This document shows positions 4,750-43,550 of a stretch of DNA of 43,550 nt, piece after piece (positions within the stretch are counted from its first letter, which is position 1; every line of letters starts with the position of its first letter). The DNA is from a virus. The position numbers and the translations under genes were made by a program. The notes under the pieces are model-generated. The model was not told where the DNA came from. It was given only the letters and a program-made list of their open reading frames with translations, and did no database searches. The stretch covers positions 1 to 43,550 of IMG/VR virus record IMGVR_UViG_3300017754_002612. One strand, written 5' to 3'.

Positions 4750-4777
4750 TTGACCATGCGCATGGTGTTGCTATGTT
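4750..4777 (+). promoter_or_regulatory. Sigma70-like promoter of the rightward recombination operon
   Basis: TTGACC (4750-4755), 16-nt spacer, TATGTT (4772-4777), about 30 nt upstream of the ATG at 4806. Confidence 0.4.
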
Positions 4778-4805
4778 CCGCCCATCACCCACCCAAGGCC
4801 AGCAA

Positions 4806-5594: not shown

Positions 5595-5596
5595 TT

Positions 5597-6022
5597 ATGA
5601 CCACCTCCGAACTCGACCAACGCACCGAAGCCCTAAACGCCGCCACCGCCCTCTTCACCGAGGACCATAGCCTAGTCGAAGCGTTAAAGGCGTTGCAGTC
5701 CGGCAAGTGGACTTTCACGCCCGACAAGGCATACGGCTCGCTTGCCCCGGCGCTCGACACCACGGAACACCTTTCCGACCTGGCAGACGAGGCGTGGGAC
5801 GTGTCGGTTAAGTGCAACAGCGCTGGACTCACTGCACTGGCCGGTCTCGCCGAGCGTCTGGACCAGTCGATCCGCAAGGTGCTGGTCGATCCCCGGACTG
5901 TGCGCGATTCGCTGGCTGGCTTCTCGGTGCTGACCACCGATGCCCGCAAAACGCTGGACGCCGAGGAGGACAACCTTCAGGCGATGGTTAATCAGGCTAT
6001 GCCGTTTGGAGCTGTGGCATGA
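5597..6022 (+). CDS. Hypothetical protein (141 aa)
   Basis: ORF starting 3 nt after the upstream stop, with a 4-nt overlap to the next gene. Confidence 0.7.
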   Translation: MTTSELDQRTEALNAATALFTEDHSLVEALKALQSGKWTFTPDKAYGSLAPALDTTEHLSDLADEAWDVSVKCNSAGLTALAGLAERLDQSIRKVLVDPRTVRDSLAGFSVLTTDARKTLDAEEDNLQAMVNQAMPFGAVA

Positions 6023-6378
6023 AAATCGACTACTCCGACGACTCCACCCTGATCATGGCCCTAGAAGACGACCACGACCACCTCCGCGACCACTGCGAAC
6101 GCGTCGCAATTGAGCGTGAGGCGAAGAAGGAATGCGAGCCAACGCCGATTCTGAGTATGCATGCAGCGCCAACCCTGAACTGGGATCTCATCATCGACTG
6201 GTGCCTACTGCTTATCGTCACCGTTTCGTTCATCCTGACCATGATGTTGTGCGGTATATGCATCCAGGCGTGGCTTGAACTGGAAGGTTCCGGCCTGATC
6301 GCGTGTGGCGTCTGTGCGGTGCTGAGTGCTGCCGTATGTGGCGTGGCTGGGTGGGTTACGGTTAAGCGCATAACTTAA
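6019..6378 (+). CDS. Membrane protein (119 aa, two C-terminal TM segments)
   Basis: Acidic N-terminal half, then LIIDWCLLLIVTVSFILTMMLCGICI and GLIACGVCAVLSAAVCGVAGWV. Confidence 0.7.
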   Translation: MKIDYSDDSTLIMALEDDHDHLRDHCERVAIEREAKKECEPTPILSMHAAPTLNWDLIIDWCLLLIVTVSFILTMMLCGICIQAWLELEGSGLIACGVCAVLSAAVCGVAGWVTVKRIT

Positions 6379-6411
6379 ATAAACAATGCCCGAATGGGCG
6401 GAAGGAATCAC

Positions 6412-7044
6412 ATGGACAAATCTCAATCAATCGGCGCTCTCGCCACTGCCGTGCTCAAAGCGCGAACTTCATTCAAGCCTGCAATTAAGGACGCAAACAA
6501 CCCGTTTTTCAAAAGTAAGTACCTGACCCTCGAGGGATGCTATGAGGCCATCGATGTCGCCATGGCCGCCAATGGTCTGGTTGTGATTCAATCCACCGAT
6601 GTGGGGGATCATGGCCCGGTGCTGGTCAGTACTCTGATGCACACTTCTGGAGAATGGATCAGCGGAAGCTACCCACTCAAGCCGGTCAAGGATGACCCGC
6701 AGGGAATGGGCAGCGCCATGACGTACGCCCGCCGTTATGCGCTTATGGCAATGGTTGGCCTAGCTGCTGAAGACGACGACGGCAACGCAGCATCTCGGAA
6801 GGTTGCCAAGGTAGCCAGCGCTACTGGCGAAGTGGTTACTAAAATCCCTAAATGGTCGCCGGAACAACTCAAGGAAGTTGGTGGATATTTCGCTGAGGTC
6901 ATCAGGATTGGCGGGGAAACCGGAGAGGCTGAAGTTAAGAAGCTACGGGCTGATATGAAATACGACCAACCATCATCTGTTATTGACGCTGCGGCAGTGC
7001 TTGCCCGCAAGTGGCTTGACATTGAATCACAAGGAAACGGCTAA
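6412..7044 (+). CDS. erf: Erf-family single-strand annealing protein
   Basis: FFKSKYLTLEGCYEAI and GMGSAMTYARRYALMAMVGLAAEDDDGN match the ERF signature as I recall it from P22 Erf. ATG 6412 has AAGGAA upstream. Confidence 0.85.
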   Translation: MDKSQSIGALATAVLKARTSFKPAIKDANNPFFKSKYLTLEGCYEAIDVAMAANGLVVIQSTDVGDHGPVLVSTLMHTSGEWISGSYPLKPVKDDPQGMGSAMTYARRYALMAMVGLAAEDDDGNAASRKVAKVASATGEVVTKIPKWSPEQLKEVGGYFAEVIRIGGETGEAEVKKLRADMKYDQPSSVIDAAAVLARKWLDIESQGNG

Positions 7045-7454
7045 TGCCAACTCTCGCATCCTGTTCGATCATCGGACACCTTTACGAAGCTCCTAAGAAA
7101 ATCGGAACCGGGGAACGAACTGGGGCCTCTTTTCGGTTTTACACTACCGATCGCGTCAAGGGGGATGATGGGGAGTACGGTAAGCAATTCACTTCTCATT
7201 CAGGAGTTATTTGGGGCAAGGAAGCGGAATGGCTGATCCGTGACGGAAAGAAAGGGTCGTTGATCGCCTGCGCTGGAACCTTCCGTGTGCGCAAGTGGGA
7301 GAAGGACGGTAGGGCTGGGGCCGGTACTGACATTCAATGCCAGTCGGCTAAGATCCTGAACCGTGAGGAAGAGGATCAGGCCGAGAAGCCAGCGCCTGCC
7401 CGGGCGCGTCCGGTTGCCCCGGCTGCTGGCGGTGAAGACGAGCCACCCTTTTAG
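7044..7454 (+). CDS. ssb: Single-stranded DNA-binding protein
   Basis: An OB-fold-sized N-terminal region, a Pro/Ala-rich linker and the acidic tail GGEDEPPF typical of SSB C-termini. The gene directly follows erf. Confidence 0.8.
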   Translation: MPTLASCSIIGHLYEAPKKIGTGERTGASFRFYTTDRVKGDDGEYGKQFTSHSGVIWGKEAEWLIRDGKKGSLIACAGTFRVRKWEKDGRAGAGTDIQCQSAKILNREEEDQAEKPAPARARPVAPAAGGEDEPPF

Positions 7455-7510
7455 GGGGTGGCCATGTATAACTCTTATCGTCGCCAGTTGCGGCGGGAGG
7501 TGGCGTCATT

Positions 7511-7939
7511 ATGAATAAAAAAATTATCAAACGATTTGACGCGAAGAGAGATATTTTACTGCAAGTGTTTAAGTCCAAACATCCAAAGGACTACAAGGAA
7601 ATTGTTGTAGAACTTGTGAAGGCAATAACCAGTGATGATGATTATGATGAAGATGGGCTAAATCCGGACCCAGAAAGAATAACCGTCGTAGATCATGGCG
7701 ATTACCAGGGCTCTCTATTGTTTATTATAGCAGCAAAGGGGTATCAGCCTTCTAATTATTGGGCAACAGAATGTAATTATGGCTCATGTTCTGGGTGCGA
7801 TACGTTGCAATCTATTTGCAATTACGACGATTGTCAGCCATCAGATGAACAGGCAAATGATTATTTAACTTTGTCCTTACATTTGGCTCAAAAAATGACT
7901 AAGTTATTTGAAGACCAATCATCAAAAGAAGCCCCATGA
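7511..7939 (+). CDS. Acidic Cys-motif protein (142 aa), unknown function, low-GC gene
   Basis: GGGAGGTGG Shine-Dalgarno sequence. Contains SDDDYDEDG and ECNYGSCSGCDTLQSICNYDDC. Composition is visibly more AT-rich than the flanking genes. ATGA overlap with the next gene. Confidence 0.75.
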   Translation: MNKKIIKRFDAKRDILLQVFKSKHPKDYKEIVVELVKAITSDDDYDEDGLNPDPERITVVDHGDYQGSLLFIIAAKGYQPSNYWATECNYGSCSGCDTLQSICNYDDCQPSDEQANDYLTLSLHLAQKMTKLFEDQSSKEAP

Positions 7940-8301: not shown

Positions 8302-8485
8302 TTGCAGAGAAGTCTACTATGCAATGTGACTGCGAATAGGAATAGAATGCACCCCACTGACGACTTCGACCTAATCGCCGGACTGCGCGCGATATGGCTT
8401 TTCAGGCACTTTGATAGGCCTCGGGAGATTGTGCGGTTGTTGCTAAAACGCTTACGTAAACCATGATTCCACGAAAGGAAACCCC

Positions 8486-8776
8486 GTGGCCACTACTGTC
8501 TCAGAAAAACTCTCCCTGTTCATCGACGCCTTGCTCTTGCAGGGCGGACCGAAGCATTTTTCCATTGACGGCGAGGAAGAAGTTGACGTAAGGCAGCTCT
8601 TCGACAAGGCCATCGGAATCATCAAGTTTAAGGAGGAGCAGCAGGTGCAGCTGCTTCAGAAAGTTTCCGCTCCTTCATCGCCTGCTTCACCTGCAAAAGC
8701 TGCTTCATCAAAGCCTGAATCTCAGGGTCTTTCGACTGCTGATAAAAAGACTGGTACGACTGCACATCAGGGCTAG
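8486..8776 (+). CDS. Hypothetical protein (96 aa), doubtful 3' part
   Basis: GTG start with AAAGGAA 6 nt upstream. The first roughly 47 aa look protein-like. The last 149 nt run antisense to the end of 8628..11939 and encode low-complexity S/P/A sequence. Confidence 0.35.
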   Translation: MATTVSEKLSLFIDALLLQGGPKHFSIDGEEEVDVRQLFDKAIGIIKFKEEQQVQLLQKVSAPSSPASPAKAASSKPESQGLSTADKKTGTTAHQG

Positions 8777-11700
8777 CAGCTAGGTAGTCGCTCAGGAGCT
8801 GACGCAACGCAGCTTGTTCATCTACGGTCTTCACCTTGGCCCCGGTTAGGGTGTTCAAGAGTGAAGCGCCGGTGGATTCATCGGGCGAGAAGAGGCTAGA
8901 AAGCGTGCTGATGGGGGAGGCGATGGGCTGAATGACCCCGGTCCCTGCCAGCATGTTGTACAGGGCCGCAGCATCAGACCGTTCATCAGCCCCCAACGCC
9001 TGGGCAATGCCCGGAGCCTTGTCGTAGGATCCCCACTTGGTTCCGAAGTAGGGATCCTCTCCGGTAAATACCGAGTATACGGTCTTTAGTGCAGGGTTGG
9101 CGGAACCAACAACGTTTTGCCGTAGCTGACGGCCAAGCTGCCCTATATCCACGCTGGGGTTAGGCAGGGACGAGAGCACTTCAATGGGCAGGCCAAGGCT
9201 GGTCAGGTACGTGGGATTACCATTAGGTGCATCCCCTAGCGGAATAGCCACCTGCTTCTGAAGCCATGGCGGTAGGGGATTCTCGCCAGCATCGTCCTGC
9301 GTGAAGAGCGGACGCGTTGCCGGGATCAGGAACGGGTTGTCTTTCATGGCCTTGACAACTTGCGGAACTGCCTTAGCCGTGAACTGGAAGAATGGGATAA
9401 TGTCACGCGCCCGACGATTGGCTACGCTGTTGTAGGCGTAATCGTAGAAGGTATCGCTGACCACCTGAGCTGCCTGCTTGGGGTCCATGCCGCTCTTCAA
9501 TAGCCCATCGAATACCGAGAAGCGCATACGCATTTCGGCACCCTGTGCGATCTTGGCAGGCCAATCGCGTAGATCGGCATAGATCTTTCTCCAGCCACTC
9601 TTGGCAATCTCCTTAGAGAGGAGTTCGGAATCAGCAAACGTATTGGCAATAACGCCATGCCGCAGGGCTTCCTGCATAGATCCAGGCGGCAGCGCATTGA
9701 TGGCGTTATCCAGGCTGCCATTGGCTCCTTTGATGGCCGTATTCAATTGTTTAAAGATGTCCTCACTGGCGATGCGTCTGCCCAGGATGTGGTTGATGCC
9801 GTCATTAACGGAGCCCCAAAGCATATCCGCCGATTCCCGTGCATACTTCGGCCACTGTGCGCGGGCGGCTGGATTGGACAGCACCTGGAACATGCCGCCA
9901 ACGATGTTTCTGGTATTGAAATTGATGCGCGGGATAAATGCGCCAGCCGTAGCAAACGGCTTGAACTTGTTGTTGACCATGGCCAAAGCCTGTTCAAAGC
10001 CTCCGCGACCTGGCAGGCCAGACCATGCACGGGCCAGCGCATCGGCTGATGCACGGTCTGTCAGGGCAATTTCATCAATGATCTTGGGGATGGCGTCCTT
10101 CAAGGCTGGACCATTTTCCATACCAAAGAGCGATGCCCCCTTAGCGTCTAGTGCGGCACGTTCAGCGGGAGTCAGTCCGACCAATTCCAGACGTTCCTTG
10201 GCATCCATCTGGGTCCACTTCTCAATGGACTTGCCAGCATTGGCCAGCTTCTCTTCCGCAGAGGCGATGAAGGGGCCAGAAAGCACCTTGGCAAACTCGG
10301 CCTTACCAAGAAGTCCGGCCTGCTGCTGTGCGTACTTGCCCTCAACCTTGGCAATGTCGTACTCTGGAGTCTTGCCACTGGCCTTGATGGCTGCCATGTA
10401 GGCTTCCTCAGTGGGGTACTGACGCGCCATGGCAGTGCTTAGGCTACCGCTACCACTTTGGGCGAAGATCTTTCCGAGATCATCTTCTTCCTTGAGCATG
10501 CGCGGCATGTAGTCGGCAAAGGACTTGGCCGCCGATTCGCCAGGGCCAACGCTCATAACACCGCGCCGGATGCGCTCCTGCCACTGCTGATGCTTCAGGT
10601 CAACGTACTTGGGGATGGCTTCCTTGAGGCGTGCAGCCTGTTCCGGAGGAAGGCCCGATGCGTCCACCCTGGCCAGAATGCCATTGATAACCTGATCCCG
10701 TTCCCCGCGATTAGTGAACAGGGCTTTCTCCAGATCGTCAGGTGCCACACGTACCATTTCCGGTACGGTCTTGGACATGCCGCTGGTGAATGCTGCCGCT
10801 TCGCCTGGGTTCTTGACTAAATCCACGCCTTCACGGGCGGCACGGGGGATGCCAGTGGCACCAAGCATTCCAGCTACGGCGTCGGGGGTAGATCCCGGGG
10901 TAGATACGGTTTCAGCGTTGCGCTTGAAGAGGGTGGCAAAGTCTTCAGGGACGTTGACGGCACCTTTGACAACCGGGCCAATGGGAGTCGATCCCTTGAT
11001 GCGAGGGATCGGCAGGTCAGTCAGGAATGGATCATTGGCGATGTCCACGCCGCTGGAGAACTTGCCCTCAATGGGCCGCACGGCGTACTGTGTGGGGTCG
11101 GCGGCAGCGCCCTTCTGTGGTGCGCGTCCCAGCATCTGATCCAGGTCGGACAGCTCCTCAACGCGGGTTGGCTTGGTTACGCCCTTGTACACGTCCTCAG
11201 CAAGCGGCACCGACCCCGGCGATTGATAGGGCTCCAGGCGCTCCAGTACCTTTTGCGTCTGGACAGCACGGGCTGTATTGGGCACCGATGGCACCAATAC
11301 CCGCTCGCCATCCTGCGACACGTTCCGCATGATCTTACCGAAAGCCTCCAGGTCTTCTGGCGCTAGGCCAGACAGGGCTTCACGGGCACCGGCTGCGGCC
11401 ACTTCGCCAGCGGTTGACGAAGTGTTGTTGAGTGCATCAATGGCGTCACGGGCAACTGGGCTCAACTTCTCAGCGCCAGCGAGACGCTTGACAAAAGCAG
11501 AGGTGGAATCAATTCCGCTGTCCATCTTAGCTAGTGCTTCAGCGCCTTTCGGGATCTTACTGATACCCGTACGCGCACTAGATGCGGCAGCTTTGAGCGG
11601 GGTCGTGAATAGGCCGGTGCCGACGTAGGTCAGCGGATCAGTGGCGATACCACCAAGGATGTCAACGCCCGTTTTGAGTAGGCCGGGGTCCATCTTGGGA

Positions 11701-11939
11701 GCGCCCCACTTCGCCAGCATGTCGCTGAACTCTGGGCTATCTTCTTGCTGGCTGAGTTCGGGGATCAGGTCGCCGGGGAGGAATGCATCTACCGTATCGC
11801 CAACCAAGTCAGCCCCCTGACGTAACGCGCCACCGAGATTACCAGTGGCGATATTACGTACAGAGTAGGCCGGACGACCAAGATACCTTAAAACTTCTTC
11901 AAAGGCGCTTGGCTGATCGAGGTCTAGTGCATTGGGCAT
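8628..11939 (-). CDS. Large internal virion / DNA-ejection protein candidate (1103 aa)
   Basis: Longest ORF and last gene of the late operon, in the position of T7 gp16. No lysozyme or transglycosylase motif recognised. Confidence 0.5.
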   Translation of the reverse strand: MPNALDLDQPSAFEEVLRYLGRPAYSVRNIATGNLGGALRQGADLVGDTVDAFLPGDLIPELSQQEDSPEFSDMLAKWGAPKMDPGLLKTGVDILGGIATDPLTYVGTGLFTTPLKAAASSARTGISKIPKGAEALAKMDSGIDSTSAFVKRLAGAEKLSPVARDAIDALNNTSSTAGEVAAAGAREALSGLAPEDLEAFGKIMRNVSQDGERVLVPSVPNTARAVQTQKVLERLEPYQSPGSVPLAEDVYKGVTKPTRVEELSDLDQMLGRAPQKGAAADPTQYAVRPIEGKFSSGVDIANDPFLTDLPIPRIKGSTPIGPVVKGAVNVPEDFATLFKRNAETVSTPGSTPDAVAGMLGATGIPRAAREGVDLVKNPGEAAAFTSGMSKTVPEMVRVAPDDLEKALFTNRGERDQVINGILARVDASGLPPEQAARLKEAIPKYVDLKHQQWQERIRRGVMSVGPGESAAKSFADYMPRMLKEEDDLGKIFAQSGSGSLSTAMARQYPTEEAYMAAIKASGKTPEYDIAKVEGKYAQQQAGLLGKAEFAKVLSGPFIASAEEKLANAGKSIEKWTQMDAKERLELVGLTPAERAALDAKGASLFGMENGPALKDAIPKIIDEIALTDRASADALARAWSGLPGRGGFEQALAMVNNKFKPFATAGAFIPRINFNTRNIVGGMFQVLSNPAARAQWPKYARESADMLWGSVNDGINHILGRRIASEDIFKQLNTAIKGANGSLDNAINALPPGSMQEALRHGVIANTFADSELLSKEIAKSGWRKIYADLRDWPAKIAQGAEMRMRFSVFDGLLKSGMDPKQAAQVVSDTFYDYAYNSVANRRARDIIPFFQFTAKAVPQVVKAMKDNPFLIPATRPLFTQDDAGENPLPPWLQKQVAIPLGDAPNGNPTYLTSLGLPIEVLSSLPNPSVDIGQLGRQLRQNVVGSANPALKTVYSVFTGEDPYFGTKWGSYDKAPGIAQALGADERSDAAALYNMLAGTGVIQPIASPISTLSSLFSPDESTGASLLNTLTGAKVKTVDEQAALRQLLSDYLAASPDVQSYQSFYQQSKDPEIQALMKQLLQVKQAMKERKLSEAAAPAAPP

Positions 11940-11948
11940 GGCTATGTT

Positions 11949-13106
11949 TTATGGAAGCGTGTCGAAGAATGAAGGGCTTCTTGCGACTGATCCGGGAAGA
12001 CCAATGCCCATAACGGTTGCCTGCCGTGAAGCCTGTTTGAGCTTGGTGCGGAGAGCTGCTTTAGCCTGCTCCAGTTGCGCCTCATCCAGTCCGGTTTCCG
12101 CCAGAGCCTGGACGACATCCTGCCATGCGCTTTGGATGCTTGCCTTGTCAGCGTCAGAGAACGAGAAGTTTTGTTTCGCCACAAAGTTGACGAGTTCATC
12201 TACGACAGACGCAACCTGTGCAACAGCCGCAGCCGGTGACGCCTTGGCCGCATCAATGCGACTCGCCCGTGCATCCTGTGGGCTCGGCTGGCCGAAGGTA
12301 TCTGGCAATTGAACGCCTGCCAGTTGTGCCAGCCCCTGCATGCCAATGGCACGTGTTTGCGGATCCGGGCTCTGAGAGGCAGCACGGTAGAAAGCCTCCC
12401 GTCTGGCAAACGAGTCTCTCTGAGACTGCAAGGCCAGCGCAGCCGCTGCGTCCTCTTTCTTAGCGTTACGGTCACGCTCCCATTTCGCCTGCTCAATGGC
12501 AGTCTGGTCCGGCTTCAAGCCGATGGTGTCCCGCACGGTTTCTTGAACGAGCTTCTGATCCAGAGGCTCAGGATCCTGTGGGAGATAGATTTCGTTGTTG
12601 AAGTAAGCGCGTTTAGCAGCCCCAGTAACGCCCCCCATTCTTTCCTTAAACTGCGCAATGCGCTCAGGGGAAGCCATGGTACCGTCAGGGTTTTTAAGGC
12701 TGCTTGAAATTTGATCCTCTAATTCGCTAAGATTTACAATGGATCGGCGTTCATCCGCCAGCTTCTGCTCCCTGGTCTTGGGCTTGCCAGGAACCAAGCC
12801 AGCTTCTTGCAGAATACGCTCACGCACCCGGTCAGCGGCAGACTTCTCCTCGCCAGCAACGACCGGGGCAGGCATCGGCTCAGGCTCTTGTTCAGCGCCC
12901 ATGCCACCGCCCATACCACCGCCCATGCCACCAACAGGCTGCGAGGCCAGTCGCTCATAGGATGCTCGGGCCGCTTCCTGATTCCGCTGCTGACGATCCG
13001 CCAACTCTTTACGGAATAGGAAGTCGCGCATGCGCTCTGCCGCAGCTTCCTGCTCAGTCTGTCGATCGCTAACGCCGCCATTGGGGTCAAAGGTAGTCCA
13101 CGGCAT
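11949..13106 (-). CDS. Internal virion protein candidate (385 aa)
   Basis: Charged helical protein with a GGMGGGMGGGMG tract; gp15-like position. Confidence 0.45.
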   Translation of the reverse strand: MPWTTFDPNGGVSDRQTEQEAAAERMRDFLFRKELADRQQRNQEAARASYERLASQPVGGMGGGMGGGMGAEQEPEPMPAPVVAGEEKSAADRVRERILQEAGLVPGKPKTREQKLADERRSIVNLSELEDQISSSLKNPDGTMASPERIAQFKERMGGVTGAAKRAYFNNEIYLPQDPEPLDQKLVQETVRDTIGLKPDQTAIEQAKWERDRNAKKEDAAAALALQSQRDSFARREAFYRAASQSPDPQTRAIGMQGLAQLAGVQLPDTFGQPSPQDARASRIDAAKASPAAAVAQVASVVDELVNFVAKQNFSFSDADKASIQSAWQDVVQALAETGLDEAQLEQAKAALRTKLKQASRQATVMGIGLPGSVARSPSFFDTLP

Positions 13107-34543: not shown

Positions 34544-34910
34544 TGGCGATCTTCTCTAGCTCGGCTTCGGATGGCTCCGCGTCGCCGTCCTTCTTATCGC
34601 GGGCCAAGATCGCCTTTAATACTTGGTCAAACATCTTCTGGTCACCAGCATCGAGCGAGGAGGAGAGATTCGCCATGGCGGTGAGGAGCTGGACCCGGAG
34701 CTTCTGATCAGGGACTTCCTCAAACTCCTTGGCCATCTGAAGGAGGACCTGGACAACCGGGGGATCTTCGGCGGTGACTACGCTGCGATCAGCACCGAAG
34801 AGCTTGAGAGTGGTGAGGCGCTTAGCGAGAGCATGGGTAGACCGCATGCGCCGGAGGAGGTTGGCCTCACTGATGCCACGGTCGGTGATGGAAGTTGCAG
34901 ATACGCTCAT
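34536..34910 (-). CDS. Terminase small subunit candidate (124 aa)
   Basis: First gene of the late operon, with an 8-nt overlap to terL and AAGGAG 10 nt upstream. The call rests on position only. Confidence 0.45.
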   Translation of the reverse strand: MSVSATSITDRGISEANLLRRMRSTHALAKRLTTLKLFGADRSVVTAEDPPVVQVLLQMAKEFEEVPDQKLRVQLLTAMANLSSSLDAGDQKMFDQVLKAILARDKKDGDAEPSEAELEKIANG

Positions 34911-35347
34911 GCCTACTGGCTCCTTGTGTTTCTACCCACCCCACCCCTCTTGCGAGATCATAAAATCCCGCTACCAGCCTCCCCTTAGCGACACAACGGC
35001 TTTGGTCAGTGTACTTGGTATCCGGCGTCTGAGCGCCACCGGCTTCCCCTGGTTGTTCAGGGCTACACTTCCCGCGTCCGTCATGTCAATGCATCCCTCA
35101 CCTGCCGGGACGGGTCCATTCCTGGATTGCCGCTCCACCCTTTAGGGTCATCGGGACACTTCGCACACGGCAGACTGTGCTCCCCTTACGTGCTAATCAC
35201 CAATCTCGCTCAGAGAAACAGTGACCGCTTAGAGAGCTTTTACCGTACTGGGTGGTAGTCAGGATACGGCAACTGCTGCGGATGTGCTATTGGGCATGTT
35301 GTGCGAAAATTCAACACGTCAACCGTCTATTGGGCGCGCGTGCGCGT

Positions 35348-35376
35348 AAAGTAAGCGATCACTCACTTATTGTCAA
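35348..35376 (-). promoter_or_regulatory. Sigma70-like promoter candidate for the late/packaging operon
   Basis: On the minus strand: TTGACA (35376-35371), 17-nt spacer, TACTTT (35353-35348). It would give a roughly 430-nt leader before the ATG at 34910. Confidence 0.35.
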
Positions 35377-35651
35377 TGTGGAAAACTTCTGGTATGTGGA
35401 TAACTCGGTAAGTACATGGAATGAAAGTGGTTGGAAATGGTAGGAAATTTTTAGAGGGGGGGCTAGATTATATATAACCGCAAATGGGGTGGACCCCCGG
35501 GTTGGGATCGGGCCAGGCGGGAACGGCGAGGCTAAAATTACCTACTAAGGCCTATGAAGTCCGATAATGTGCAATACGTAACTTCTTAAAAACTCATTAT
35601 ATATATGCAATTCAACGACTTACAGCTTTACATATTATTATGCAGGGGGGG

Positions 35652-35680
35652 TTGGCTGTATTATGATGCCTATTGATAAT
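35652..35680 (+). promoter_or_regulatory. Promoter-like element
   Basis: TTGGCT, 17-nt spacer, GATAAT, immediately after a G7 run (35645-35651). Confidence 0.3.
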
Positions 35681-35690
35681 GCAATTGCAT
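35679..35690. promoter_or_regulatory. Perfect 12-bp palindrome ATGCAATTGCAT (operator-like)
   Basis: Overlaps the -10 box and predicted start site of the 35652-35680 element. A second palindrome, CATCGATG, follows. Confidence 0.35.
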
Positions 35691-35708
35691 CGATGAATGG
35701 CATCGTTC

Positions 35709-35729
35709 CACCCGCCCGTGGGTGTTTTT
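35709..35729 (+). terminator. Short hairpin plus T-run (weak intrinsic terminator); a twin hairpin lies at 35736-35753
   Basis: CACCC-GCCCGT-GGGTG followed by TTTTTATTATT. The near-duplicate is CCACCC-GCCGAT-GGGTGG. Confidence 0.4.
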
Positions 35730-35768
35730 ATTATTCCACCCGCCGATGGGTGGAGCTGTGAACCCAAT

Positions 35769-35812
35769 CCCCTCCCCATTCCCCATCCCCCATCCTTAAT
35801 CCCCCCATCCCC
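35769..35812. repeat. C-tract: six runs of C4-C6 (G-quadruplex on the minus strand, i-motif on the plus strand)
   Basis: Reads CCCCTCCCCATTCCCCATCCCCCATCCTTAATCCCCCCATCCCC. It ends 10 bp upstream of the -35 box at 35823. Confidence 0.6.
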
Positions 35813-35822
35813 AAAATACCTC

Positions 35823-35850
35823 TTGCGCTATTACAATCGGGGGCTATAAT
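35823..35850 (+). promoter_or_regulatory. Sigma70-like promoter of the rightward small-gene/methyltransferase operon
   Basis: TTGCGC, 16-nt spacer, consensus TATAAT (35845-35850). Confidence 0.55.
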
Positions 35851-35898
35851 ACATTCATCGCAATGCCGCGACAGGTCCAAGCGACCAAGGAGCACGCC

Positions 35899-36240
35899 GT
35901 GTTTTATACCACTCACTACCGACTGATCATAGAATCTGATTGCCTTGGACCGCAAGCAGAGGCACGCGACCTGGCAGAGACTGCCCTGGATGCTGCCATC
36001 CGCGCCCTCCCCGACGGCGGCCTAGCTGCCTGCCGCGCCCGCGCCATCTGTGCCTACGCTCGTGGCGAGCTGGAGGAGGTCTACGTAGATCACGTCGAGA
36101 CCCGCGCCCCTACCGTAGAGGAGTGCGCCGCATATCGCGATTGGCTCGCCTGCGAGCGAGCAGCGGACGATGCTGCCTACGCCGGCTGGGCCCAGCGCCC
36201 TCGGCGCGGTGGTCTGGTCTACGGCGTAGAGGGGGTGTGA
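35899..36240 (+). CDS. Hypothetical protein (113 aa from GTG 35899; the track ATG at 35863 would be nearly leaderless)
   Basis: AAGGAG lies 6 nt upstream of GTG 35899. The ATG at 35863 lies only about 6 nt from the predicted transcription start. Confidence 0.6.
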   Translation: MFYTTHYRLIIESDCLGPQAEARDLAETALDAAIRALPDGGLAACRARAICAYARGELEEVYVDHVETRAPTVEECAAYRDWLACERAADDAAYAGWAQRPRRGGLVYGVEGV

Positions 36241-36242
36241 TC

Positions 36243-36611
36243 GTGATCACCCACTACGCACTCCCCACCGACGCCACGGCATCAGCTCGTCAGCGGGCTG
36301 AGATCGTCGCACGATGCGCGCTCCGACCCCGGACAGCCCAGAAGGCTGCACAGATCGCCCTCGCGAGCCATCAGCACACCTACGTCATCCCTCGCGACGC
36401 CACCGGCGGATCGATTGCAGTACGGTGCTGTGAATGCGGAGCGGTCTCGGAGCTGACGATCCACGAGACCACCTGGACCGGCGTGCCCTACTCGCGTGCC
36501 GACGCCGCCGCGCTGGTGCACATCCTCTCCGACATCCATCTGAACCGCACGGTGGCACCGTGTACTTTAACCGCTAAGGAACCGCACCATGAAGCCTATA
36601 ATTTCGATTAG
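36243..36611 (+). CDS. Hypothetical protein (122 aa) with a CCECG motif
   Basis: GTG 36243 has GAGGGGG 7 nt upstream. The 223-aa track ORF is an Arg-rich off-frame extension of this gene. Confidence 0.6.
   Translation: MITHYALPTDATASARQRAEIVARCALRPRTAQKAAQIALASHQHTYVIPRDATGGSIAVRCCECGAVSELTIHETTWTGVPYSRADAAALVHILSDIHLNRTVAPCTLTAKEPHHEAYNFD
36563..36593 (+). repeat. 31-bp duplicated translation-initiation block, copy 1
   Basis: TACTTTAACCGCTAAGGAACCGCACCATGAA is identical to 38710-38740. Confidence 0.95.
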
Positions 36612-36834
36612 CGCAAAAATCGCCTCGCTGCCTCGCGCTGAGGATGCAATCGCCTACGCCACTGGTGCACTAGACCGGATAGAGGCGCTCTACCGGCGCG
36701 CGCGCCCCCTGGCACCTGGCCGTCTGAGGCGGCCCTGGACCTGCGGAGAGCAGACCTACAGAGCAATATCGAGCCTGGGCCGGCAGGTGGGAGAGATCAA
36801 GAGCGCGGCTATCAGCCGGGGGGAGGAGCTGTGA
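36589..36834 (+). CDS. Hypothetical protein (81 aa)
   Basis: The ATG lies inside the duplicated block, with AAGGAA 8 nt upstream. Confidence 0.6.
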   Translation: MKPIISISAKIASLPRAEDAIAYATGALDRIEALYRRARPLAPGRLRRPWTCGEQTYRAISSLGRQVGEIKSAAISRGEEL

Positions 36835-36994
36835 GCACATCTACCATGGACAGCTACATAGCTAACCTCATCAACACGGCAGTCAGGGCAATAAAATACC
36901 TTTTGATTCATTTCGGGACGCTTCATAATCCCAGCATCAGCAACCGCTGACATTCCCACGAGTGATTGACTCGCAAGCCCTGAAAGGGCAAAAC

Positions 36995-38374
36995 ATGCTG
37001 CAAACTATCGTCAACCCCATTAATGCAGTCACCGGCAAGCCATACTCTGGCGGCAATGTCGCTAAGCTCATAGACGCGATGGATAGCGACTTGCGCTTTG
37101 TCACTGGCGCATTTGCCACCTTCCGCCAATGGCTGGCGATCGGTCGTTGCGTGCGCAAGGGGGAAGCGTGTGCCGCTCGTCTCTTGGCCTTTAGTGACGG
37201 CCAGACACAGGAGACAGATTCCGGCAAAGTGAAGGGCAAGGGCAAGGCCAGGTTCAAGAAAGGCTTTTGCGTGTTCGCCATCGAACAAACTGACGCGATT
37301 GAAGGCTGGACACCCGATCAGTCTCCCACCATCACAAGGGAGGAAGATACGGGCGAGGCTCCAGCCGTTGCAGTGGCGCAGATAGCCAAGCCAAGCCCTA
37401 CCATCGACCTTGCCAAGATCAGCGCGAAAGCCGATAAGCTCATCATTAAAGCCGAGGCATGCTTTGCTGATCGTCTCCAGAATACCGCCAAGCGTCTCGC
37501 GCAAGCCATGCACAAGCGGATGGAAGGCCAGCGCATGGAACGACAGGCGCACATCCTCAAGGCTTTCGTGCTCGCCAGTAAAGATGGCCAGAACCCATTG
37601 CCAGGTGCTACCATTAGCGACCTGTTCCAATGGTCTGAGGAAGCCGCTATCTATAAGGCCACCCCGGTTTCAAATGGCTATTATGGCTATCACGTCGAAA
37701 CTACGGACGCGCAATACACGGAAGCGCATCACGTCGCTTTGCGCGGGCTGCTTGACCCTCGCGCCGTTGCTGCATCGGCTGAAAAGATAGCCAAGGAACG
37801 GGCAGAGGCTGACTTGCGCACTTGTGACTTTCCCGGTTTCTTCCCGACTCCTGCTAGCGTTGTGCAAATCATGCTGGAACAGGCGGGCGACCTACGGGGT
37901 AAGGCAGTCTTGGAACCGTCGGCAGGAAAGGGGGACTTAGTTAGAGCCGCACTTGAGGCCGGGGCAAAGTCTGTCAAAGCATTTGAGATTGTTCCGAAAC
38001 TGGCCGACTATCTGGCAACCTTCGTGCGTCCCACTGGTGCGCAATGCGTCGTCTCTCAGCAAGCCGACTTTCTGAATGAATTGCCGGTCGGACCACATGC
38101 ACGGGTTGACGTTGTTTTGATGAATCCGCCTTTTGAGCGAGATGCAGCACCCGCCCACGTATTGCACGCGCTTTCATGGCTCAAGCCGGGGGGAAAGCTC
38201 GTCTCGGTTATGCCTCTGAATTGGTCAGAAAAGAAAGCCGCAGACTACCTCTTGCGCACGATTGAAAACATGGGGTTGTCAATGCTGGAGGTAGAAGTGG
38301 ATGGGCCAGCATTCAATGGTGCTGACAGCTTCAGACAGACGGCTGTCCGTACCTGCATCCTCGTAATCGGATAA
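36995..38374 (+). CDS. ArdC-N-like ssDNA-binding domain fused to an N6-adenine DNA methyltransferase
   Basis: The N-terminus NAVTGKPYSGGNVAKL...ATFRQWLAIGRCVRKGE matches the ArdC N-terminal (DUF1738) pattern. The C-terminus has SAM motif I VLEPSAGKGDL and catalytic motif IV VLMNPPFE. ATG 36995 has AAAGGG upstream (the track GTG is at 36962). Confidence 0.75.
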   Translation: MLQTIVNPINAVTGKPYSGGNVAKLIDAMDSDLRFVTGAFATFRQWLAIGRCVRKGEACAARLLAFSDGQTQETDSGKVKGKGKARFKKGFCVFAIEQTDAIEGWTPDQSPTITREEDTGEAPAVAVAQIAKPSPTIDLAKISAKADKLIIKAEACFADRLQNTAKRLAQAMHKRMEGQRMERQAHILKAFVLASKDGQNPLPGATISDLFQWSEEAAIYKATPVSNGYYGYHVETTDAQYTEAHHVALRGLLDPRAVAASAEKIAKERAEADLRTCDFPGFFPTPASVVQIMLEQAGDLRGKAVLEPSAGKGDLVRAALEAGAKSVKAFEIVPKLADYLATFVRPTGAQCVVSQQADFLNELPVGPHARVDVVLMNPPFERDAAPAHVLHALSWLKPGGKLVSVMPLNWSEKKAADYLLRTIENMGLSMLEVEVDGPAFNGADSFRQTAVRTCILVIG

Positions 38375-38451
38375 CCCATGCGCCTCCACCTCTTCCTATC
38401 CTCAGCCCACATCCTCTCCCGTATCCATCGGAACCGCAAAGTAATCTAATC

Positions 38452-38691
38452 ATGCAAGCCAAGATATATATATCGGGCATTACGCTTCGCCAAGCCCGCA
38501 TCCTCCGTTATATGGTCCATATCTGCGGAGGGTGCCGTTGCAATGCCATCCGCTCCTATGGGACGCACTGTGCATCCATCGATATCGACATGGATGGACC
38601 AAGGGCAAAGCAACTCGCCAAGTTGGTCCTAGATTGCCCTCCCCGTTGGCAATGGGCTGCTAGGCAATGCATGGTTAGCTACCATCCATAA
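38452..38691 (+). CDS. Cys-rich small protein (79 aa)
   Basis: ORF with an ATCGGAACCGCA motif copy 12 nt upstream. Confidence 0.55.
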   Translation: MQAKIYISGITLRQARILRYMVHICGGCRCNAIRSYGTHCASIDIDMDGPRAKQLAKLVLDCPPRWQWAARQCMVSYHP

Positions 38692-38709
38692 AACAACCAG
38701 CACGCCGTT

Positions 38710-38740
38710 TACTTTAACCGCTAAGGAACCGCACCATGAA
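38710..38740 (+). repeat. 31-bp duplicated translation-initiation block, copy 2
   Basis: Identical to 36563-36593. Confidence 0.95.
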
Positions 38741-38942
38741 AGCTAAACTCAATATCGCGATTACCTCTTACGGAACCCCCTGGGATATGGCTGGCGCTAT
38801 TGCCTGCAGAAACGCGCTAAAAGAAGCCGCGGCAAAAGAAATAGATACGAATCTAGCTAAAAAATTGCAGGTTCGCGCCGAATGGTGGGACGCTGTCATA
38901 ATGGAGCTACGCCACCAGCCGCCCCATCCTGGCGCGAGCTGA
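38736..38942 (+). CDS. Hypothetical protein (68 aa)
   Basis: The ATG lies inside the duplicated block. Confidence 0.6.
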   Translation: MKAKLNIAITSYGTPWDMAGAIACRNALKEAAAKEIDTNLAKKLQVRAEWWDAVIMELRHQPPHPGAS

Positions 38943-39015
38943 TGCGACCCGTCCCCCGCGTCAGTGGGGACCCAAAGCGCCACCAGTCGCAACCACTGGC
39001 ACCAAGGAACACACC

Positions 39016-39165
39016 ATGAAGCCCAAGTATGACGAACTCGTTGACGCCATCTACAAGCTGATTCCATATATGGAAGAAGTGGAATCAGACGAGACGTACA
39101 AGCCCGGAGTCGTCAAAGCGATGAACGACAAAATCAAGGCCATGCTGGAAAAGGCTACGGCTTGA
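39016..39165 (+). CDS. Small protein (49 aa)
   Basis: Hand-translated: MKPKYDELVDAIYKLIPYMEEVESDETYKPGVVKAMNDKIKAMLEKATA. The upstream sequence AAGGAACACACCATGAAGCC is a diverged copy of the same initiation block. Confidence 0.5.
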   Translation: MKPKYDELVDAIYKLIPYMEEVESDETYKPGVVKAMNDKIKAMLEKATA

Positions 39166-39470
39166 TGATGATCAAAAAGAAACGCGCCATAACGTACTCC
39201 AAACGCGAGGGAAACCCTAGAGTAGATTATTGGATATTAGATGCAGATGATCGGATAACGGCATGTTCTCCGACTAAGTGGCATCACTACGCATTACCAG
39301 ACCAGACCACGCCAGAAACGCTGGCAGAATGTGCCGACATACGCTACCGTGCGACTCAAAAGCAATTGAATAAAATCATAGATGATAACGCTTGGCTCCG
39401 CAATAATCCACCCCCGGCAGGAGTAGACCGCATGGTCCACTTGTGCCAACACTTAGGGATAACCGTATGA
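39165..39470 (+). CDS. Hypothetical protein (about 101 aa)
   Basis: ORF with a TGATG overlap to the upstream small ORF. Confidence 0.6.
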   Translation: MMIKKKRAITYSKREGNPRVDYWILDADDRITACSPTKWHHYALPDQTTPETLAECADIRYRATQKQLNKIIDDNAWLRNNPPPAGVDRMVHLCQHLGITV

Positions 39471-39733
39471 GCACCAAACCCCATCCATGCGCCACCCTAT
39501 CGTCCTTACTCCAGTCGCTACGGCCATCCTCTGAACCGCACGCCACGGCAATGATAGCCTCAAAAATCCACTCCCTAACCAAGGGCAACAACCGAGACAC
39601 GACCGGCTTTAAGAACGCCATATGCCGTTGGTCCATCCGACTCCAGGATGACTACGGTGTGGAACTCGACCAAGACCAGCAAGGCCGGCTTCTCCTGACT
39701 CTTCCTGGGGGCTTGGCGTTGGATCTGGAATAG
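39467..39733 (+). CDS. Hypothetical protein (88 aa)
   Basis: Start taken at MSTKPHP (ATGA overlap). Confidence 0.55.
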   Translation: MSTKPHPCATLSSLLQSLRPSSEPHATAMIASKIHSLTKGNNRDTTGFKNAICRWSIRLQDDYGVELDQDQQGRLLLTLPGGLALDLE

Positions 39734-41956: not shown

Positions 41957-43483
41957 TTAAAAAACGTTTTCAGTTTCGCTGGGTGGCGCGTCCATTCGCT
42001 TCTTTCTTTCTTGAACCTCCTCCGAAACATCCGCATCACTCGCCGCATCCTGGAAATGCTGCCATTTGCCATAAAACCACATTGGTAGCGTAATCGGGAA
42101 AGGTCCGCGCCGGTTTTTTGCGATAATGCAATCAACCCTTCTTTCCAAGCCTTCACGATCTATGGGGTGAAGCATAACAACGCCATCGGCATCGGCTTCG
42201 ATTGATCCGCCGCCGTATAGATCCTCAACACGAGGAACGGGGTCGGCTTCAATTTTGCCATCTGCTGAACGTGGCGGCTTGCGACCTTCACGGGTAAGTT
42301 GGCTCAGTAAAATGATTGCCACGCCTTCAGCTAGAGCGATTTGTTTGAGGGTGGAAGTGATTTCCGTTGTGCGATCGGTGAGAAATTGCTTAGGGTTTGA
42401 TCCTTTGATGAGTCCAAGGTAATCTATCACCACAAGTTCAAGCGCCCCGTGTCTTGCCCGTTGCGAACGGATCCAAGCCCCGACATGCGCTACCGTCTGA
42501 GGTCCAGCGGTCGAATCACGGAGCCACATGGAGCCACTTTTTTGCCATTCCCTAGCCAACTGATGCAACGCCTGCCGATCAGCCTCTAGGAGCGTTTCCC
42601 ATGCGTTCGCTACCTTGTCCCGTGGCACCTTGGCGTCCCGGCAGGCAAGGACGGTAGCCAGTTCTTCGGATGACATCTCCAGGGACAAATAAGCCACTGA
42701 GCGCCGACCGAGATTCTTGGCAGTGCTGTGTGCCGCCTGAATCGCCAACGAGGTCTTGCCTCCACCTGGCCTAGCCCCGACTACAAAAAACCTCCCCTTA
42801 GACAATGGTAGATGCCTGTCGAGCGAAGACAGGCCCCATGTAGCTGGCCGATCCTTGCCAATTGCGCGCAAAGCCGCCTCCTTGGCAGAATTATCGAGAG
42901 CGGTAGCCAGGGAGTCACCTAAAGACCGTTCGCCCGCCGTTGTTCCCGTATCGCGCAGTAGATCGGCAAGGGATGCGATGAGAGGGGTGGCGTCCTCGGT
43001 CACGGAGACCTTGGCCAGGGCGGAAGTCGTCTTGGCCAGCTTGTCGATCAGGGTAACACGGTCGGCCAGATGACGCAGCATCCGAATAGCCCGCTTGGGA
43101 GGTCCGTAGGTCAGTCCTGAGCCAGCCAGACGAGCACCAGCCGCGTCAATGACCAGGGAGGCGGCCTGAATCGCAGCCATGGCCGTATCTGCATGACTCT
43201 TGCCTGCCGACATGGCGAGAGGCTTGCCAGCAAGATGGTCCAATGCGTCATGCCAGGTAATCCGGCTCAGGTATTCCAGTGCCGCCCCCTGATCGTGGGG
43301 AATCTCGCCACGTTCCATGGCGTCCAGGGCAAGCGATAAGATCTTGTTCCGTTGGCCAGCAAAGAACCGATGGGACGGGGCTGGGCAGGACTCTGCCAGG
43401 AGGTGGAGCGATTCTACGCTTTCGAGCGCATCGCCCAGGACAAGCAAGCTAATCGCTTCGTGAGTGTCAGTCAGGACGGTCAT
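41957..43483 (-). CDS. dnaB: DnaB-family replicative DNA helicase
   Basis: Walker A GARPGGGKTSLA, SLEMS, Walker B VVIDYLGLI and LLSQLTREG, with a DnaB-like N-terminal domain. 508 aa. Confidence 0.9.
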   Translation of the reverse strand: MTVLTDTHEAISLLVLGDALESVESLHLLAESCPAPSHRFFAGQRNKILSLALDAMERGEIPHDQGAALEYLSRITWHDALDHLAGKPLAMSAGKSHADTAMAAIQAASLVIDAAGARLAGSGLTYGPPKRAIRMLRHLADRVTLIDKLAKTTSALAKVSVTEDATPLIASLADLLRDTGTTAGERSLGDSLATALDNSAKEAALRAIGKDRPATWGLSSLDRHLPLSKGRFFVVGARPGGGKTSLAIQAAHSTAKNLGRRSVAYLSLEMSSEELATVLACRDAKVPRDKVANAWETLLEADRQALHQLAREWQKSGSMWLRDSTAGPQTVAHVGAWIRSQRARHGALELVVIDYLGLIKGSNPKQFLTDRTTEITSTLKQIALAEGVAIILLSQLTREGRKPPRSADGKIEADPVPRVEDLYGGGSIEADADGVVMLHPIDREGLERRVDCIIAKNRRGPFPITLPMWFYGKWQHFQDAASDADVSEEVQERKKRMDAPPSETENVF

Positions 43484-43550
43484 ACCATGTCCAGGTTGAG
43501 CGGCGGGGCTTGTGGGCGAGCCGGTGGAGGTGGAATTATTCTAGCGAGGA
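43428..43550. repeat. Terminal direct repeat, second copy (identical to 1..123)
   Basis: See the first copy. It contains the duplicated 3' end of the initiator gene. Confidence 0.95.

Follow-up and report, generated by a model that had tools for sequence, protein, structure and literature searches.

The plus strand of IMG/VR record IMGVR_UViG_3300017754_002612, a viral sequence taken here over its full 43,550 nucleotides (the window), carries between positions 36995 and 38374 a gene for a three-domain protein of 459 amino acids. The protein opens with an ArdC-N head (residues 1-101), continues through a linker (102-138) and a domain here called MID (139-276), and ends in a class I, S-adenosylmethionine (SAM)-dependent methyltransferase (MT) core (277-459). 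MID is a previously undescribed domain, and the unit that it forms with the core, MID-MT, is an orphan enzyme module of mobile elements with swappable heads. The reading favoured here, at about even confidence, is that the protein as a whole serves its tailed phage as an orphan DNA methyltransferase against restriction. The features of the gene are as follows.

36982..36988, plus strand: Shine-Dalgarno-like GAAAGGG, 6 nucleotides 5' of the ATG (read from the sequence)
36995..38374, plus strand: coding sequence of the three-domain protein, 459 amino acids and stop (open reading frame list, translation)
36995..37297, plus strand: ArdC-N domain, residues 1-101, basic, N-terminally truncated relative to ArdC (Pfam, profile, AlphaFold2 model)
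37271..37288, plus strand: VFAIEQ, residues 93-98, counterpart of the ArdC/Rad4 'squiggle' V121-FNADQ (hidden Markov model alignment to ArdC)
37298..37408, plus strand: acidic disordered connector, residues 102-138, the only true linker (model confidence, identity, isoelectric point)
37409..37822, plus strand: MID domain, residues 139-276, conserved and basic (AlphaFold2, alignment, local hidden Markov models)
37466..37504, plus strand: MID signature ADRLQNTAKRLAQ, residues 158-170 (alignment A1)
37823..38371, plus strand: class I SAM-dependent amino-methyltransferase core, residues 277-459 (PHROG, PADLOC, Pfam, Foldseek)
37838..37852, plus strand: TP-capped helix FFPTP, residues 282-286 (alignment)
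37913..37939, plus strand: motif I EPSAGKGDL, residues 307-315, the SAM-binding loop (alignment)
38123..38137, plus strand: motif IV NPPFE, residues 377-381, the catalytic loop (alignment)

The reading frame runs from the ATG at 36995 to the stop at 38372-38374. An alternative start, GTG 36962, has no Shine-Dalgarno sequence, and the start residues MLQT are identical in the aligned homologue P0003. The protein of a sister phage in IMG/VR (P0001) is 98 % identical to it, and another homologue is 79 % identical over the full length. Conservation was judged in an alignment (A1) of the protein with 42 homologues, 43 sequences in all; every residue called invariant or at least 90 % conserved is so called on this basis. 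An AlphaFold2 model built on the same alignment has a mean predicted local distance difference test (pLDDT) score of 90.2, and scores below 50 occur only at residues 72-80, in a long hairpin of ArdC-N, and 115-130, in the connector. Of the three domains the core varies least (mean pairwise identity 0.44-0.47; ArdC-N and MID reach 0.31-0.38). The domains also differ in charge: calculated isoelectric points are 9.6 for ArdC-N, 9.0 for MID, 4.1 for the connector, and about 5.4-5.6 for the core.

The core displays its motifs in the order TP helix (motif X), motif I, motif IV, which is gamma-type. Sixteen of the 18 invariant positions in the protein fall in this catalytic core. Those in its motifs are G281, F283, P284, P308, G311, G313, N377, P378, P379, and E381; T285, P286, E307, S309, A310, and F380 are at least 90 % conserved, and two acidic residues, E331 and D358, are conserved between motifs I and IV. 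Such conservation of the core motifs argues for an active enzyme under selection. A TP helix cap that contacts the asparagine of NPP(Y/F) is common to EcoKI- and TaqI-like adenine methylases, as set out in the main text of Iyer et al. 2017 (PMC5512222). In both model and alignment the chain ends right after the last core strand (453-458 of 459), and no target-recognition domain follows. The core is of the gamma-class adenine methylase type, minus the recognition domain.

Sequence profiles lean clearly towards DNA enzymes. PHROG families named 'DNA methyltransferase' match at 1e-32 to 1e-16 and the PADLOC model mad2, also a DNA methyltransferase, at 6e-21; several class I SAM-methyltransferase models of Pfam match the C-terminal part as well. 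JGI names close homologues 'RsmD', an identity that was considered and rejected: RsmD-type models reach about 1e-5, the NCBIfam RsmD model TIGR00095 scores 22.1 bits against a cut-off of 117.5, the Pfam match to Cons_hypoth95 (PF03602) is marginal, and the protein has two extra domains. Since the DNA methyltransferase profiles far outscore the RsmD-type models, the JGI name is an over-annotation. A MADS- or BREX-like defence methyltransferase was rejected too. The mad2 match (72.7 bits) covers the core only, at profile positions 270-431 of 492; the NCBIfam model NF047738 scores 18.8 bits against a cut-off of 720; and no genes of such a system lie alongside, Pfam and PHROG scans having found no defence genes flanking the methyltransferase gene.

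Structural comparison gives a broader answer. Foldseek matches to the core (E from 4e-9 to 5e-8) comprise HsdM (3ufb, the top match), PH1948, METTL5 (which makes N6-methyladenine, m6A, in 18S rRNA), TaqI, and others; TaqI, at 24-26 % identity, and HsdM were found by sequence and fold searches alike. The alignment to 3ufb extends over 425 columns and, with a template modelling (TM) score of 0.36 and a root-mean-square deviation of 12.9, is not credible beyond the core. On these matches, the fold indicates an exocyclic-amino methyltransferase and leaves DNA versus RNA undecided; a DNA substrate is favoured by profile scores and context only.

MID is modelled as five helices and a beta hairpin, with pLDDT above 90. 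Its signatures in the alignment are ADRLxNTxKRxAQ and NGYHxYxVE; T164 is invariant, and R160, N163, K166, R167, R183, and R250 are at least 90 % conserved. Local hidden Markov models for head, MID, and MT were run on the 120 best database homologues, and in all 120, as in the query, MID immediately precedes the MT core, with or without ArdC-N. A phmmer search with MID alone against 1.84 billion representative proteins returned 79 matches at E<=1e-3, nearly all of which continue for about 180 residues after the match. MID belongs to the methyltransferase module and is not a linker. It matched no Pfam model significantly. The modelled residues 1-280 (pLDDT 87) had no significant neighbour in the PDB (best Foldseek E=0.4), so MID is placed in no known fold. 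We propose that it provides a nucleic-acid-binding surface for the acidic core. The connector ahead of it varies in length among homologues and has a mean pairwise identity of 0.20-0.22.

The head is recognized by Pfam as ArdcN (PF08401; E=2.2e-10, 41.3 bits against a cut-off of 22.6), with profile positions 34-123 of 123 covered. A profile of 19 N-terminal domains (A3), compared with the whole PDB sequence set, found only 6I89 and 6SNA, both ArdC of R388 (E=3e-13, ArdC residues 46-134). The protein begins 6-7 residues ahead of the region matched to ArdC; a longer N-terminus is retained in the more distant fusions P0021, P0026, and P0037. In the model, the order of helices (H) and strands (E) is H20-31, E39-41, H43-48, E51-53, E61-67, loop 68-85, E86-95, E99-101, with the loop forming a long low-confidence hairpin. 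This order is compatible with the ArdC-N core topology, in which helices are followed by nested beta hairpins, one of them long and protruding. A squiggle motif has been described in ArdC (PMC7213743). In its counterpart here, the A3 alignment shows Q98 to be invariant and V93 and F94 to be conserved in at least 90 % of sequences. The ArdC-N of R388 binds single-stranded DNA (ssDNA) in preference to single-strand/double-strand junctions, and junctions over double-stranded DNA (dsDNA); moreover, ArdC counters HsdRMS without need of its protease activity (PMC7213743). The sequence likeness suggests that the head here may likewise bind ssDNA or junctions without sequence specificity.

An earlier note on this DNA had described the protein as an ArdC-N-like domain joined by a helical linker of about 200 residues to an NPPF (N6-adenine) methyltransferase. 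Both ends of that description stand: the N-terminal call by the PF08401 score and by the profile that matches only ArdC in the PDB sequence set, the C-terminal call by the PHROG and PADLOC matches and by motif I preceding motif IV. Every motif it quoted was found (TGKPYSGGN at 13-21, TFRQW at 42-46, VRKGE at 53-57, and EPSAGKGDL and NPPFE as listed above). The intervening stretch is mostly helical, as claimed, and about 175 residues long, but its residues 139-276 are a conserved folded domain. As to the chemistry, the motifs are present, but NPPF alone is no proof of N6-adenine DNA methylation, given fold matches to rRNA enzymes that make m6A and N2-methylguanine (m2G). The note had proposed searches with PF08401 and N6_Mtase-type models; the former matched above its cut-off, whereas the 459-residue protein gave no PF02384 match at E<=1. 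Some homologues do show weak PF02384 matches.

How is this architecture distributed? Among the 120 best homologues together with the query, about 50 proteins have no head (about 320-340 residues in all), 28, counting the query, have ArdC-N, 29 have other N-terminal regions of 150-450 residues, and 14 have short extensions. Relatives of MID-MT were found in 324 IMG/VR contigs and at 171 loci of bacterial genomes, many from Planctomycetota and Proteobacteria; an ArdC-N head is present in 4 of the best 80 IMG/VR and 5 of the best 80 bacterial relatives. On a rough neighbour-joining tree of the MID-MT region, which carries no support values, ArdC-N is patchy and requires at least 12 changes, which suggests repeated gain or loss. 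Other heads or partners include LPD30 plus LPD29 (P0046), DUF3560 (P0071), and an AAA/DnaC-like module (P0077), and PHROG family 15406, a profile of 2789 positions, holds MID-MT inside a large polyvalent-type protein.

Nine contexts of ArdC-N-MID-MT fusions were examined. Seven are phage- or prophage-like (the window, its sister, P0013, P0021, P0038, P0048, and P0025) and carry portal, primase-helicase, RecT/YqaJ, lysozyme, or integrase genes; the other two are plasmid-like, P0071 with TrfA and ParAB and P0037 with ParA/VirC1 and a resolvase. In the phage of P0038, whose protein is 31 % identical, the gene occupies the same position, beside a homologue of a 560-residue gene product of the structural block. 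A place near a genome end, as an analogue of being first to enter, was also considered: on several contigs the gene lies within 0.5-2 kb of the contig end, but in inconsistent orientations, and the 123-nucleotide overlap at which the window closes into a circle is far from the gene; no conclusion was drawn from this. The main text of Iyer et al. 2017 (PMC5512222) reports ArdC-N as rare in tailed phages. Compact fusions of this kind in phages are therefore an unusual use of the domain. A literature search for a fusion of ArdC-N to a methyltransferase found none.

The core, though not MID, connects the phage protein to plasmids. In a tblastn search it matched at least 5000 plasmid records, over the core only, mostly conjugative plasmids of Escherichia, Klebsiella, and Salmonella. 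The IncF match, a 187-residue 'class I SAM-dependent methyltransferase' (WP_001348621-type), comes from the leading region and is co-oriented with the genes around it. Among these are a beta-type DNA methylase, an antirestriction gene, DUF3560, ssb, a ParB-like gene, and psiB, and the enzyme itself lies between DUF3560 and the ssb/ParB-like/psiB group. Against the MT profile it scores 119 bits, at about 36 % identity, and it has the TP, LEPSAGxG, and NPPF motifs. The MID profile matches neither it nor the adjacent DUF3560 protein, and the idea that IncF plasmids split MID and MT over two genes was rejected on the latter result. On the IncF plasmid pMNCRE44_6, a 453-residue DUF3560 protein lies directly upstream of the 187-residue methyltransferase, both within 5556-7528, and the two make up a conserved functional pair. 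Elsewhere DUF3560 and methyltransferase are fused, in P0071 and in Burkholderia plasmid matches annotated DUF3560. The plasmid protein P0071 combines ArdC-N, MID-MT, and DUF3560 in one chain, and so places the phage protein, ArdC-N, and the IncF gene pair in a single functional neighbourhood. A conjugative Shinella plasmid (L002) bears two core relatives a few kb apart: a stand-alone, MID-MT-like protein (6304-7137) and a core within a 1490-residue strawberry-notch-like protein of polyvalent type (8475-12947).

Orphan methyltransferases and anti-defence genes are over-represented in the leading regions of plasmids (PMC11541004), and in F and IncI1 plasmids the genes of this region are transcribed from the entering single strand (PMC12672017). 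Two methyltransferases of mobile elements, M.EcoGIX and M.BceJIII, deposit m6A on ssDNA in a promiscuous, incomplete, and strand-asymmetric fashion and protect entering plasmid DNA (PMC7736820). They are beta-class DPPY enzymes of a different family, and hence a functional precedent, not relatives.

The phage that carries the gene appears complete. The first 123 nucleotides of the window are repeated exactly at 43428-43550, which makes it a complete, circularly closed genome of 43,427 bp. (By nature the repeat may be a short terminal repeat or an overlap left by assembly.) The genome is that of a tailed phage, with genes for a major head protein, a portal/adaptor-like protein, tail fibres, DnaB, an ERF annealing protein, and a ligase-like protein, along with Laminin_G and pentapeptide-repeat proteins. 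No GenBank phage was matched by megablast of 36000-39500, and metagenomes yielded one sister genome, of 43,179 nucleotides (IMG/VR, contig L015). Rfam and tRNA scans of the whole window found nothing. The gene is part of a plus-strand unit (35863-39733) that diverges from a 26-kb structural block and converges with the replication block. Three further features of this unit are needed below.

35845..35850, plus strand: TATAAT, candidate -10 element of the operon, with a -35 element TTGCGC at 35823-35828 and a 16-nucleotide spacer (sequence read)
35896..36886, plus strand: upstream variable cassette, four small open reading frames without family matches, about 63 % G+C (blastn, Pfam/PHROG, composition)
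38455..38976, plus strand: downstream variable cassette, open reading frames of 79 and 68 amino acids (blastn, Pfam/PHROG)

The gene and the 108 nucleotides upstream of it (36887-38454) are 97 % identical to the sister genome by blastn, and there both cassettes are replaced by unrelated sequence. The flanking cassettes look like a hotspot of accessory-gene exchange, and an orphan gene between cassettes that swap in and out is the usual look of an accessory counter-defence locus. The G+C content of the upstream cassette compares with a genome average of about 55 %. The unit's nine small open reading frames have no Pfam or PHROG match and no homologue in the other loci examined. A conserved partner such as a nuclease or specificity subunit was sought and rejected: in tblastn of the operon's reading frames against loci L001-L010, only the methyltransferase and one gene of the structural block matched, and no neighbouring specificity gene was conserved there. 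The methyltransferase is thus an orphan, as the earlier note had taken it to be, with no neighbouring frame conserved across loci.

The note's further picture of an early-looking operon behind a consensus -10 element is not substantiated. The TATAAT is there, but its -35 element is weak (TTGCGC matches the consensus at 3 of 6 positions), a promoter scan did not call the site, and it lies 1.1 kb upstream of the gene. What it precedes is the variable cassette, absent from the sister, and not the methyltransferase gene itself; the region has 2 promoter-like sites where shuffled sequence has 5.4. For the first reading frame of the unit (35863-36240), the probable start is not ATG 35863 but GTG 35899, which has AAGGAG ahead of it at 35887-35892; this would give the TATAAT transcript a leader of about 40 nucleotides in place of a leaderless mRNA.

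Between the divergent structural and methyltransferase units lies a 0.95-kb non-coding region (34911-35862) that is 93 % conserved in the sister. It contains a sigma70-like site, TTGGCT-17-GATAAT, at 35652-35680, and two 19-nucleotide direct repeats, TTCCACCCGCC..TGGGTG, at 35706-35724 and 35734-35752, which fold together into a single long hairpin (-34.3 kcal/mol, z=-3.5); there are also AT-rich runs and poly-C/CCCAT-rich tracts. Candidate roles for this region are a leader or attenuator, a small RNA, and an origin. In the sister (L015 985-1224) and in the phage of P0038, a Phage_T4_Y07C-family gene (71-86 residues) opens the minus-strand block beside it; the window lacks this gene at 34907, an insertion/deletion of about 240 nucleotides.

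Composition bears on the phage's history. Several 6-bp palindromes are far below expectation in the genome (GAATTC 0 observed, 8.1 expected; CTGCAG 1, 12.9; GTCGAC 2, 12.9; AAGCTT 2, 8.1), and GATC, CCWGG, and GCGC are slightly over-represented. Such strong avoidance of 6-bp palindromes indicates a phage lineage under restriction pressure, and the phage seems to combine site avoidance with a methyltransferase. At 4773-5591 on the plus strand, and also in the sister phage, is a gene for a 273-residue pentapeptide-repeat protein (PF00805, 1e-33). Pentapeptide-repeat proteins such as Qnr and MfpA can mimic DNA. By analogy, this could be another counter-defence gene, or one directed at gyrase.

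From these observations we infer a DNA substrate, adenine-N6 chemistry, targeting to ssDNA, low specificity, and an anti-restriction role. The last is made plausible by comparative context: relatives of the core occur beside ssb, psiB, and antirestriction genes, and within polyvalent proteins. Counter-restriction by an orphan DNA methyltransferase, which we hold at about an even chance, can be stated in a narrower and more tentative form. In that form MID-MT would be a widespread, hitherto undescribed family of mobile-element adenine methyltransferases that lack a recognition domain; methylation would be promiscuous, coupled to replication, perhaps strand-asymmetric, and directed to ssDNA or forks; MID would be a new nucleic-acid-binding fold; and the interchangeable heads (ArdC-N, LPD29/30, others, or none), not a sequence-reading domain, would set the choice of substrate. 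The protein would then be a phage counterpart of the ssDNA methyltransferases of plasmid leading regions, evolved from a different enzyme class.

A possible mechanism follows this outline. The ArdC-N head, on its flexible acidic tether of 37 residues, would concentrate the enzyme on single-stranded or unwound phage DNA, its targets being replication forks and ERF-type recombination intermediates; given the phage's own ERF annealing protein and DnaB helicase, ssDNA intermediates are expected. With MID supplying a DNA-binding surface for the core, MID-MT would N6-methylate adenines with little specificity, or with that of a short motif only. On leaving the cell, progeny genomes would be at least hemimethylated at many of their sites. 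Restriction enzymes of types I, II, and III generally spare sites in that state, and such progeny would escape restriction of all three types in the next host; replicating DNA would also be protected during the current infection.

Several points weigh against this interpretation. In fold, the catalytic core is no less close to the rRNA m6A and m2G enzymes METTL5, PH1948, and RsmD-like proteins; Cons_hypoth95 passes its cut-off, if marginally (26.3 bits against 24); and the substrate may also be RNA. The phage's copy of ArdC-N has no equivalent of ArdC residues 1-45 (helices alpha1-alpha2), and DNA binding by the truncated domain is assumed, by analogy with ArdC. Foldseek against the PDB with the model of residues 1-280 retrieved neither ArdC nor Rad4 and gave no significant match, so the ArdC-N fold is not structurally confirmed. 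Most MID-MT proteins do without the head, which must therefore be dispensable for core activity. Early expression is an assumption. Tailed phages inject dsDNA, and for this reason the rationale of ssDNA entry in conjugation is not directly transferable. Finally, a literature search for experimental data on any MID-MT protein or on the IncF class I enzyme found none.

Of the rival explanations, the one that survives best, although we consider it unlikely, is an ordinary sequence-specific orphan adenine methyltransferase of dsDNA, as in phage Dam-type enzymes. MID would then be an N-terminal target-recognition domain for one fixed motif, and ArdC-N would merely raise the local concentration of DNA or separately shield DNA, as ArdC does. 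MID is indeed basic, accompanies the core in all close homologues, and sits where HsdM-type enzymes have their helical N-terminal domains (HsdM 3ufb being the top Foldseek match), and stand-alone MID-MT proteins are common in phages. However, neither HsdM-N nor any recognition domain matches MID significantly in fold, and MID is conserved across very distant hosts, whereas the recognition domains of specific enzymes diversify. The bare IncF core of 187 residues, moreover, comes without a MID, and its DUF3560 neighbour contains no MID-like domain.

It is improbable, next, that the methyl mark serves the phage's own biology, whether by distinguishing phage from host DNA for a nuclease or for packaging, by timing transcription, or by excluding superinfection. 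The 0.95-kb conserved, regulatory-looking region that the gene adjoins would suit such a role; orphan methyltransferases can have regulatory functions, and enzymes of the M.EcoGIX type alter replicon copy number and suppress M13 replication (PMC7736820). Yet no nuclease or other partner is conserved beside the gene in the loci examined, the plasmid core sits among anti-defence genes, and the flanking cassettes vary in the manner typical of accessory counter-defence.

Methylation of RNA, either host rRNA or tRNA or phage transcripts, for host takeover or the tuning of translation, is likewise improbable. ArdC-N and MID would in this case bind single-stranded RNA. NPPF and TP motifs are also present in the amino-methyltransferases of rRNA, the best fold matches of small-domain size are PH1948, METTL5, and RsmD-like proteins, and both the Cons_hypoth95 score and the JGI name 'RsmD' point the same way. 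The profiles do not: the NCBIfam RsmD model falls far short of its cut-off (22.1 bits against 117.5), and DNA methyltransferase models score much more strongly. Furthermore, ArdC-N is a documented DNA binder, and the fusion partners and neighbours of the core (ArdC-N, LPD29/30, DUF3560, ssb, psiB) serve DNA entry and establishment.

Least probable is protection without catalysis, by coating or occluding DNA like ArdC or by acting as a decoy, with methyltransferase activity dispensable or lost: the enzymatic domain of ArdC is indeed dispensable for anti-restriction (PMC7213743) and two basic, putatively DNA-binding domains are present here, but catalytic and SAM-motif residues that are invariant or at least 90 % conserved in 43 sequences are unexpected for a dispensable activity, and the core is the most conserved part of the protein (identity 0.44-0.47 against 0.31-0.38).

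The counter-restriction reading matters beyond one phage. Among the counter-defence genes of phages and plasmids, orphan methyltransferases rank with the commonest and the least characterised, and this family is large, with relatives in at least 5000 plasmid records, resistance-spreading IncF plasmids among them, and in hundreds of viral contigs. The theme itself, orphan methyltransferases and fusions of ArdC-N in conflict systems, is known; what stands out here is the undescribed MID, the large uncharacterised family, and a compact, tractable member of 459 residues. If the model is right, a protective methyltransferase can do without sequence recognition and be targeted instead to a form of DNA, ssDNA or fork. 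The abundant class I methyltransferase of IncF leading regions would gain a function, MID would be defined as a new domain, and the range of ArdC-N would grow beyond conjugation to take in tailed phages. An adenine methyltransferase that acts promiscuously on ssDNA could also be used as a reagent for footprinting or for mapping replication. If the model fails, this is one more phage orphan methyltransferase.

Among known systems, ArdC of IncW and IncN plasmids (R388, pSa; 6I89/6SNA) shares the homologous head, apparently including the long beta-hairpin region and the VFxxxQ squiggle, and a common plan: an N-terminal head (DNA-binding in ArdC and putatively so here), a flexible loop, and a C-terminal enzyme, on mobile elements that face restriction. 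The enzymes differ, a zincin/SprT-like metalloprotease in ArdC and MID plus methyltransferase here, and so do the heads, since plasmid-borne ArdC is complete with alpha1-alpha2 and the phage head lacks residues 1-45. Orthology with ArdC was rejected: no peptidase family matches at E<=1 in Pfam, and there is no zincin HExxH domain.

The 187-residue IncF enzyme belongs to the same core family and is likewise an orphan, set among establishment and anti-defence genes (DUF3560, ssb, the ParB-like HerB, psiB, antirestriction), but it resides on conjugative plasmids and has neither MID nor ArdC-N. M.EcoGIX and M.BceJIII (Fomenkov et al. 2020) resemble the phage protein as small orphans on mobile elements, without a recognition domain. 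They are beta-type, with permuted motif order and DPPY; ArdC-N and MID are absent, and the activity goes with DNA polymerase I, not with a DNA-binding head of the enzyme's own. Membership in that class was rejected, for in the phage protein motif I precedes NPPF; the M.EcoGIX homologue of IncF plasmids has motif IV before motif I, and this 227-residue protein aligns with the MT profile only in permuted pieces (14.9 bits).

TaqI and EcoKI-HsdM have the same fold and motifs; the phage protein lacks a C-terminal recognition domain, HsdS, and a detectable HsdM-N. METTL5, PH1948, and RsmD also agree in fold and motifs, to which the phage protein adds MID, ArdC-N, and a life on mobile elements.

DarB of phage P1, with the related LPD36-methylase-SWI2/SNF2 dyad, offers a gamma-type adenine-methylase core with the TP helix cap, and the DarB system defends phage DNA against restriction. 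In the main text of Iyer et al. 2017 (PMC5512222), this methylase-helicase dyad has an N-terminal LPD36 (GxGU) and a C-terminal SWI2/SNF2 helicase. DarB has 2255 residues against the 459 here, where LPD36, a helicase, and any sign of virion packaging are lacking; a Pfam scan of the 459 residues found, beyond ArdcN and methyltransferase models, only matches at E>=0.05 below their cut-offs, and no LPD or helicase family. The DarB clade was rejected in that hhalign aligns only the Rossmann core (DarB 114-277, probability 94 %, motif IV NVPF), and not MID. This methylase type and its companion domain MID are not described in the main text of Iyer et al. 2017 (PMC5512222). As outlined there, the logic of polyvalent proteins pairs a 'header' such as ArdC-N with an effector, and the phage protein fits it in a minimal form.

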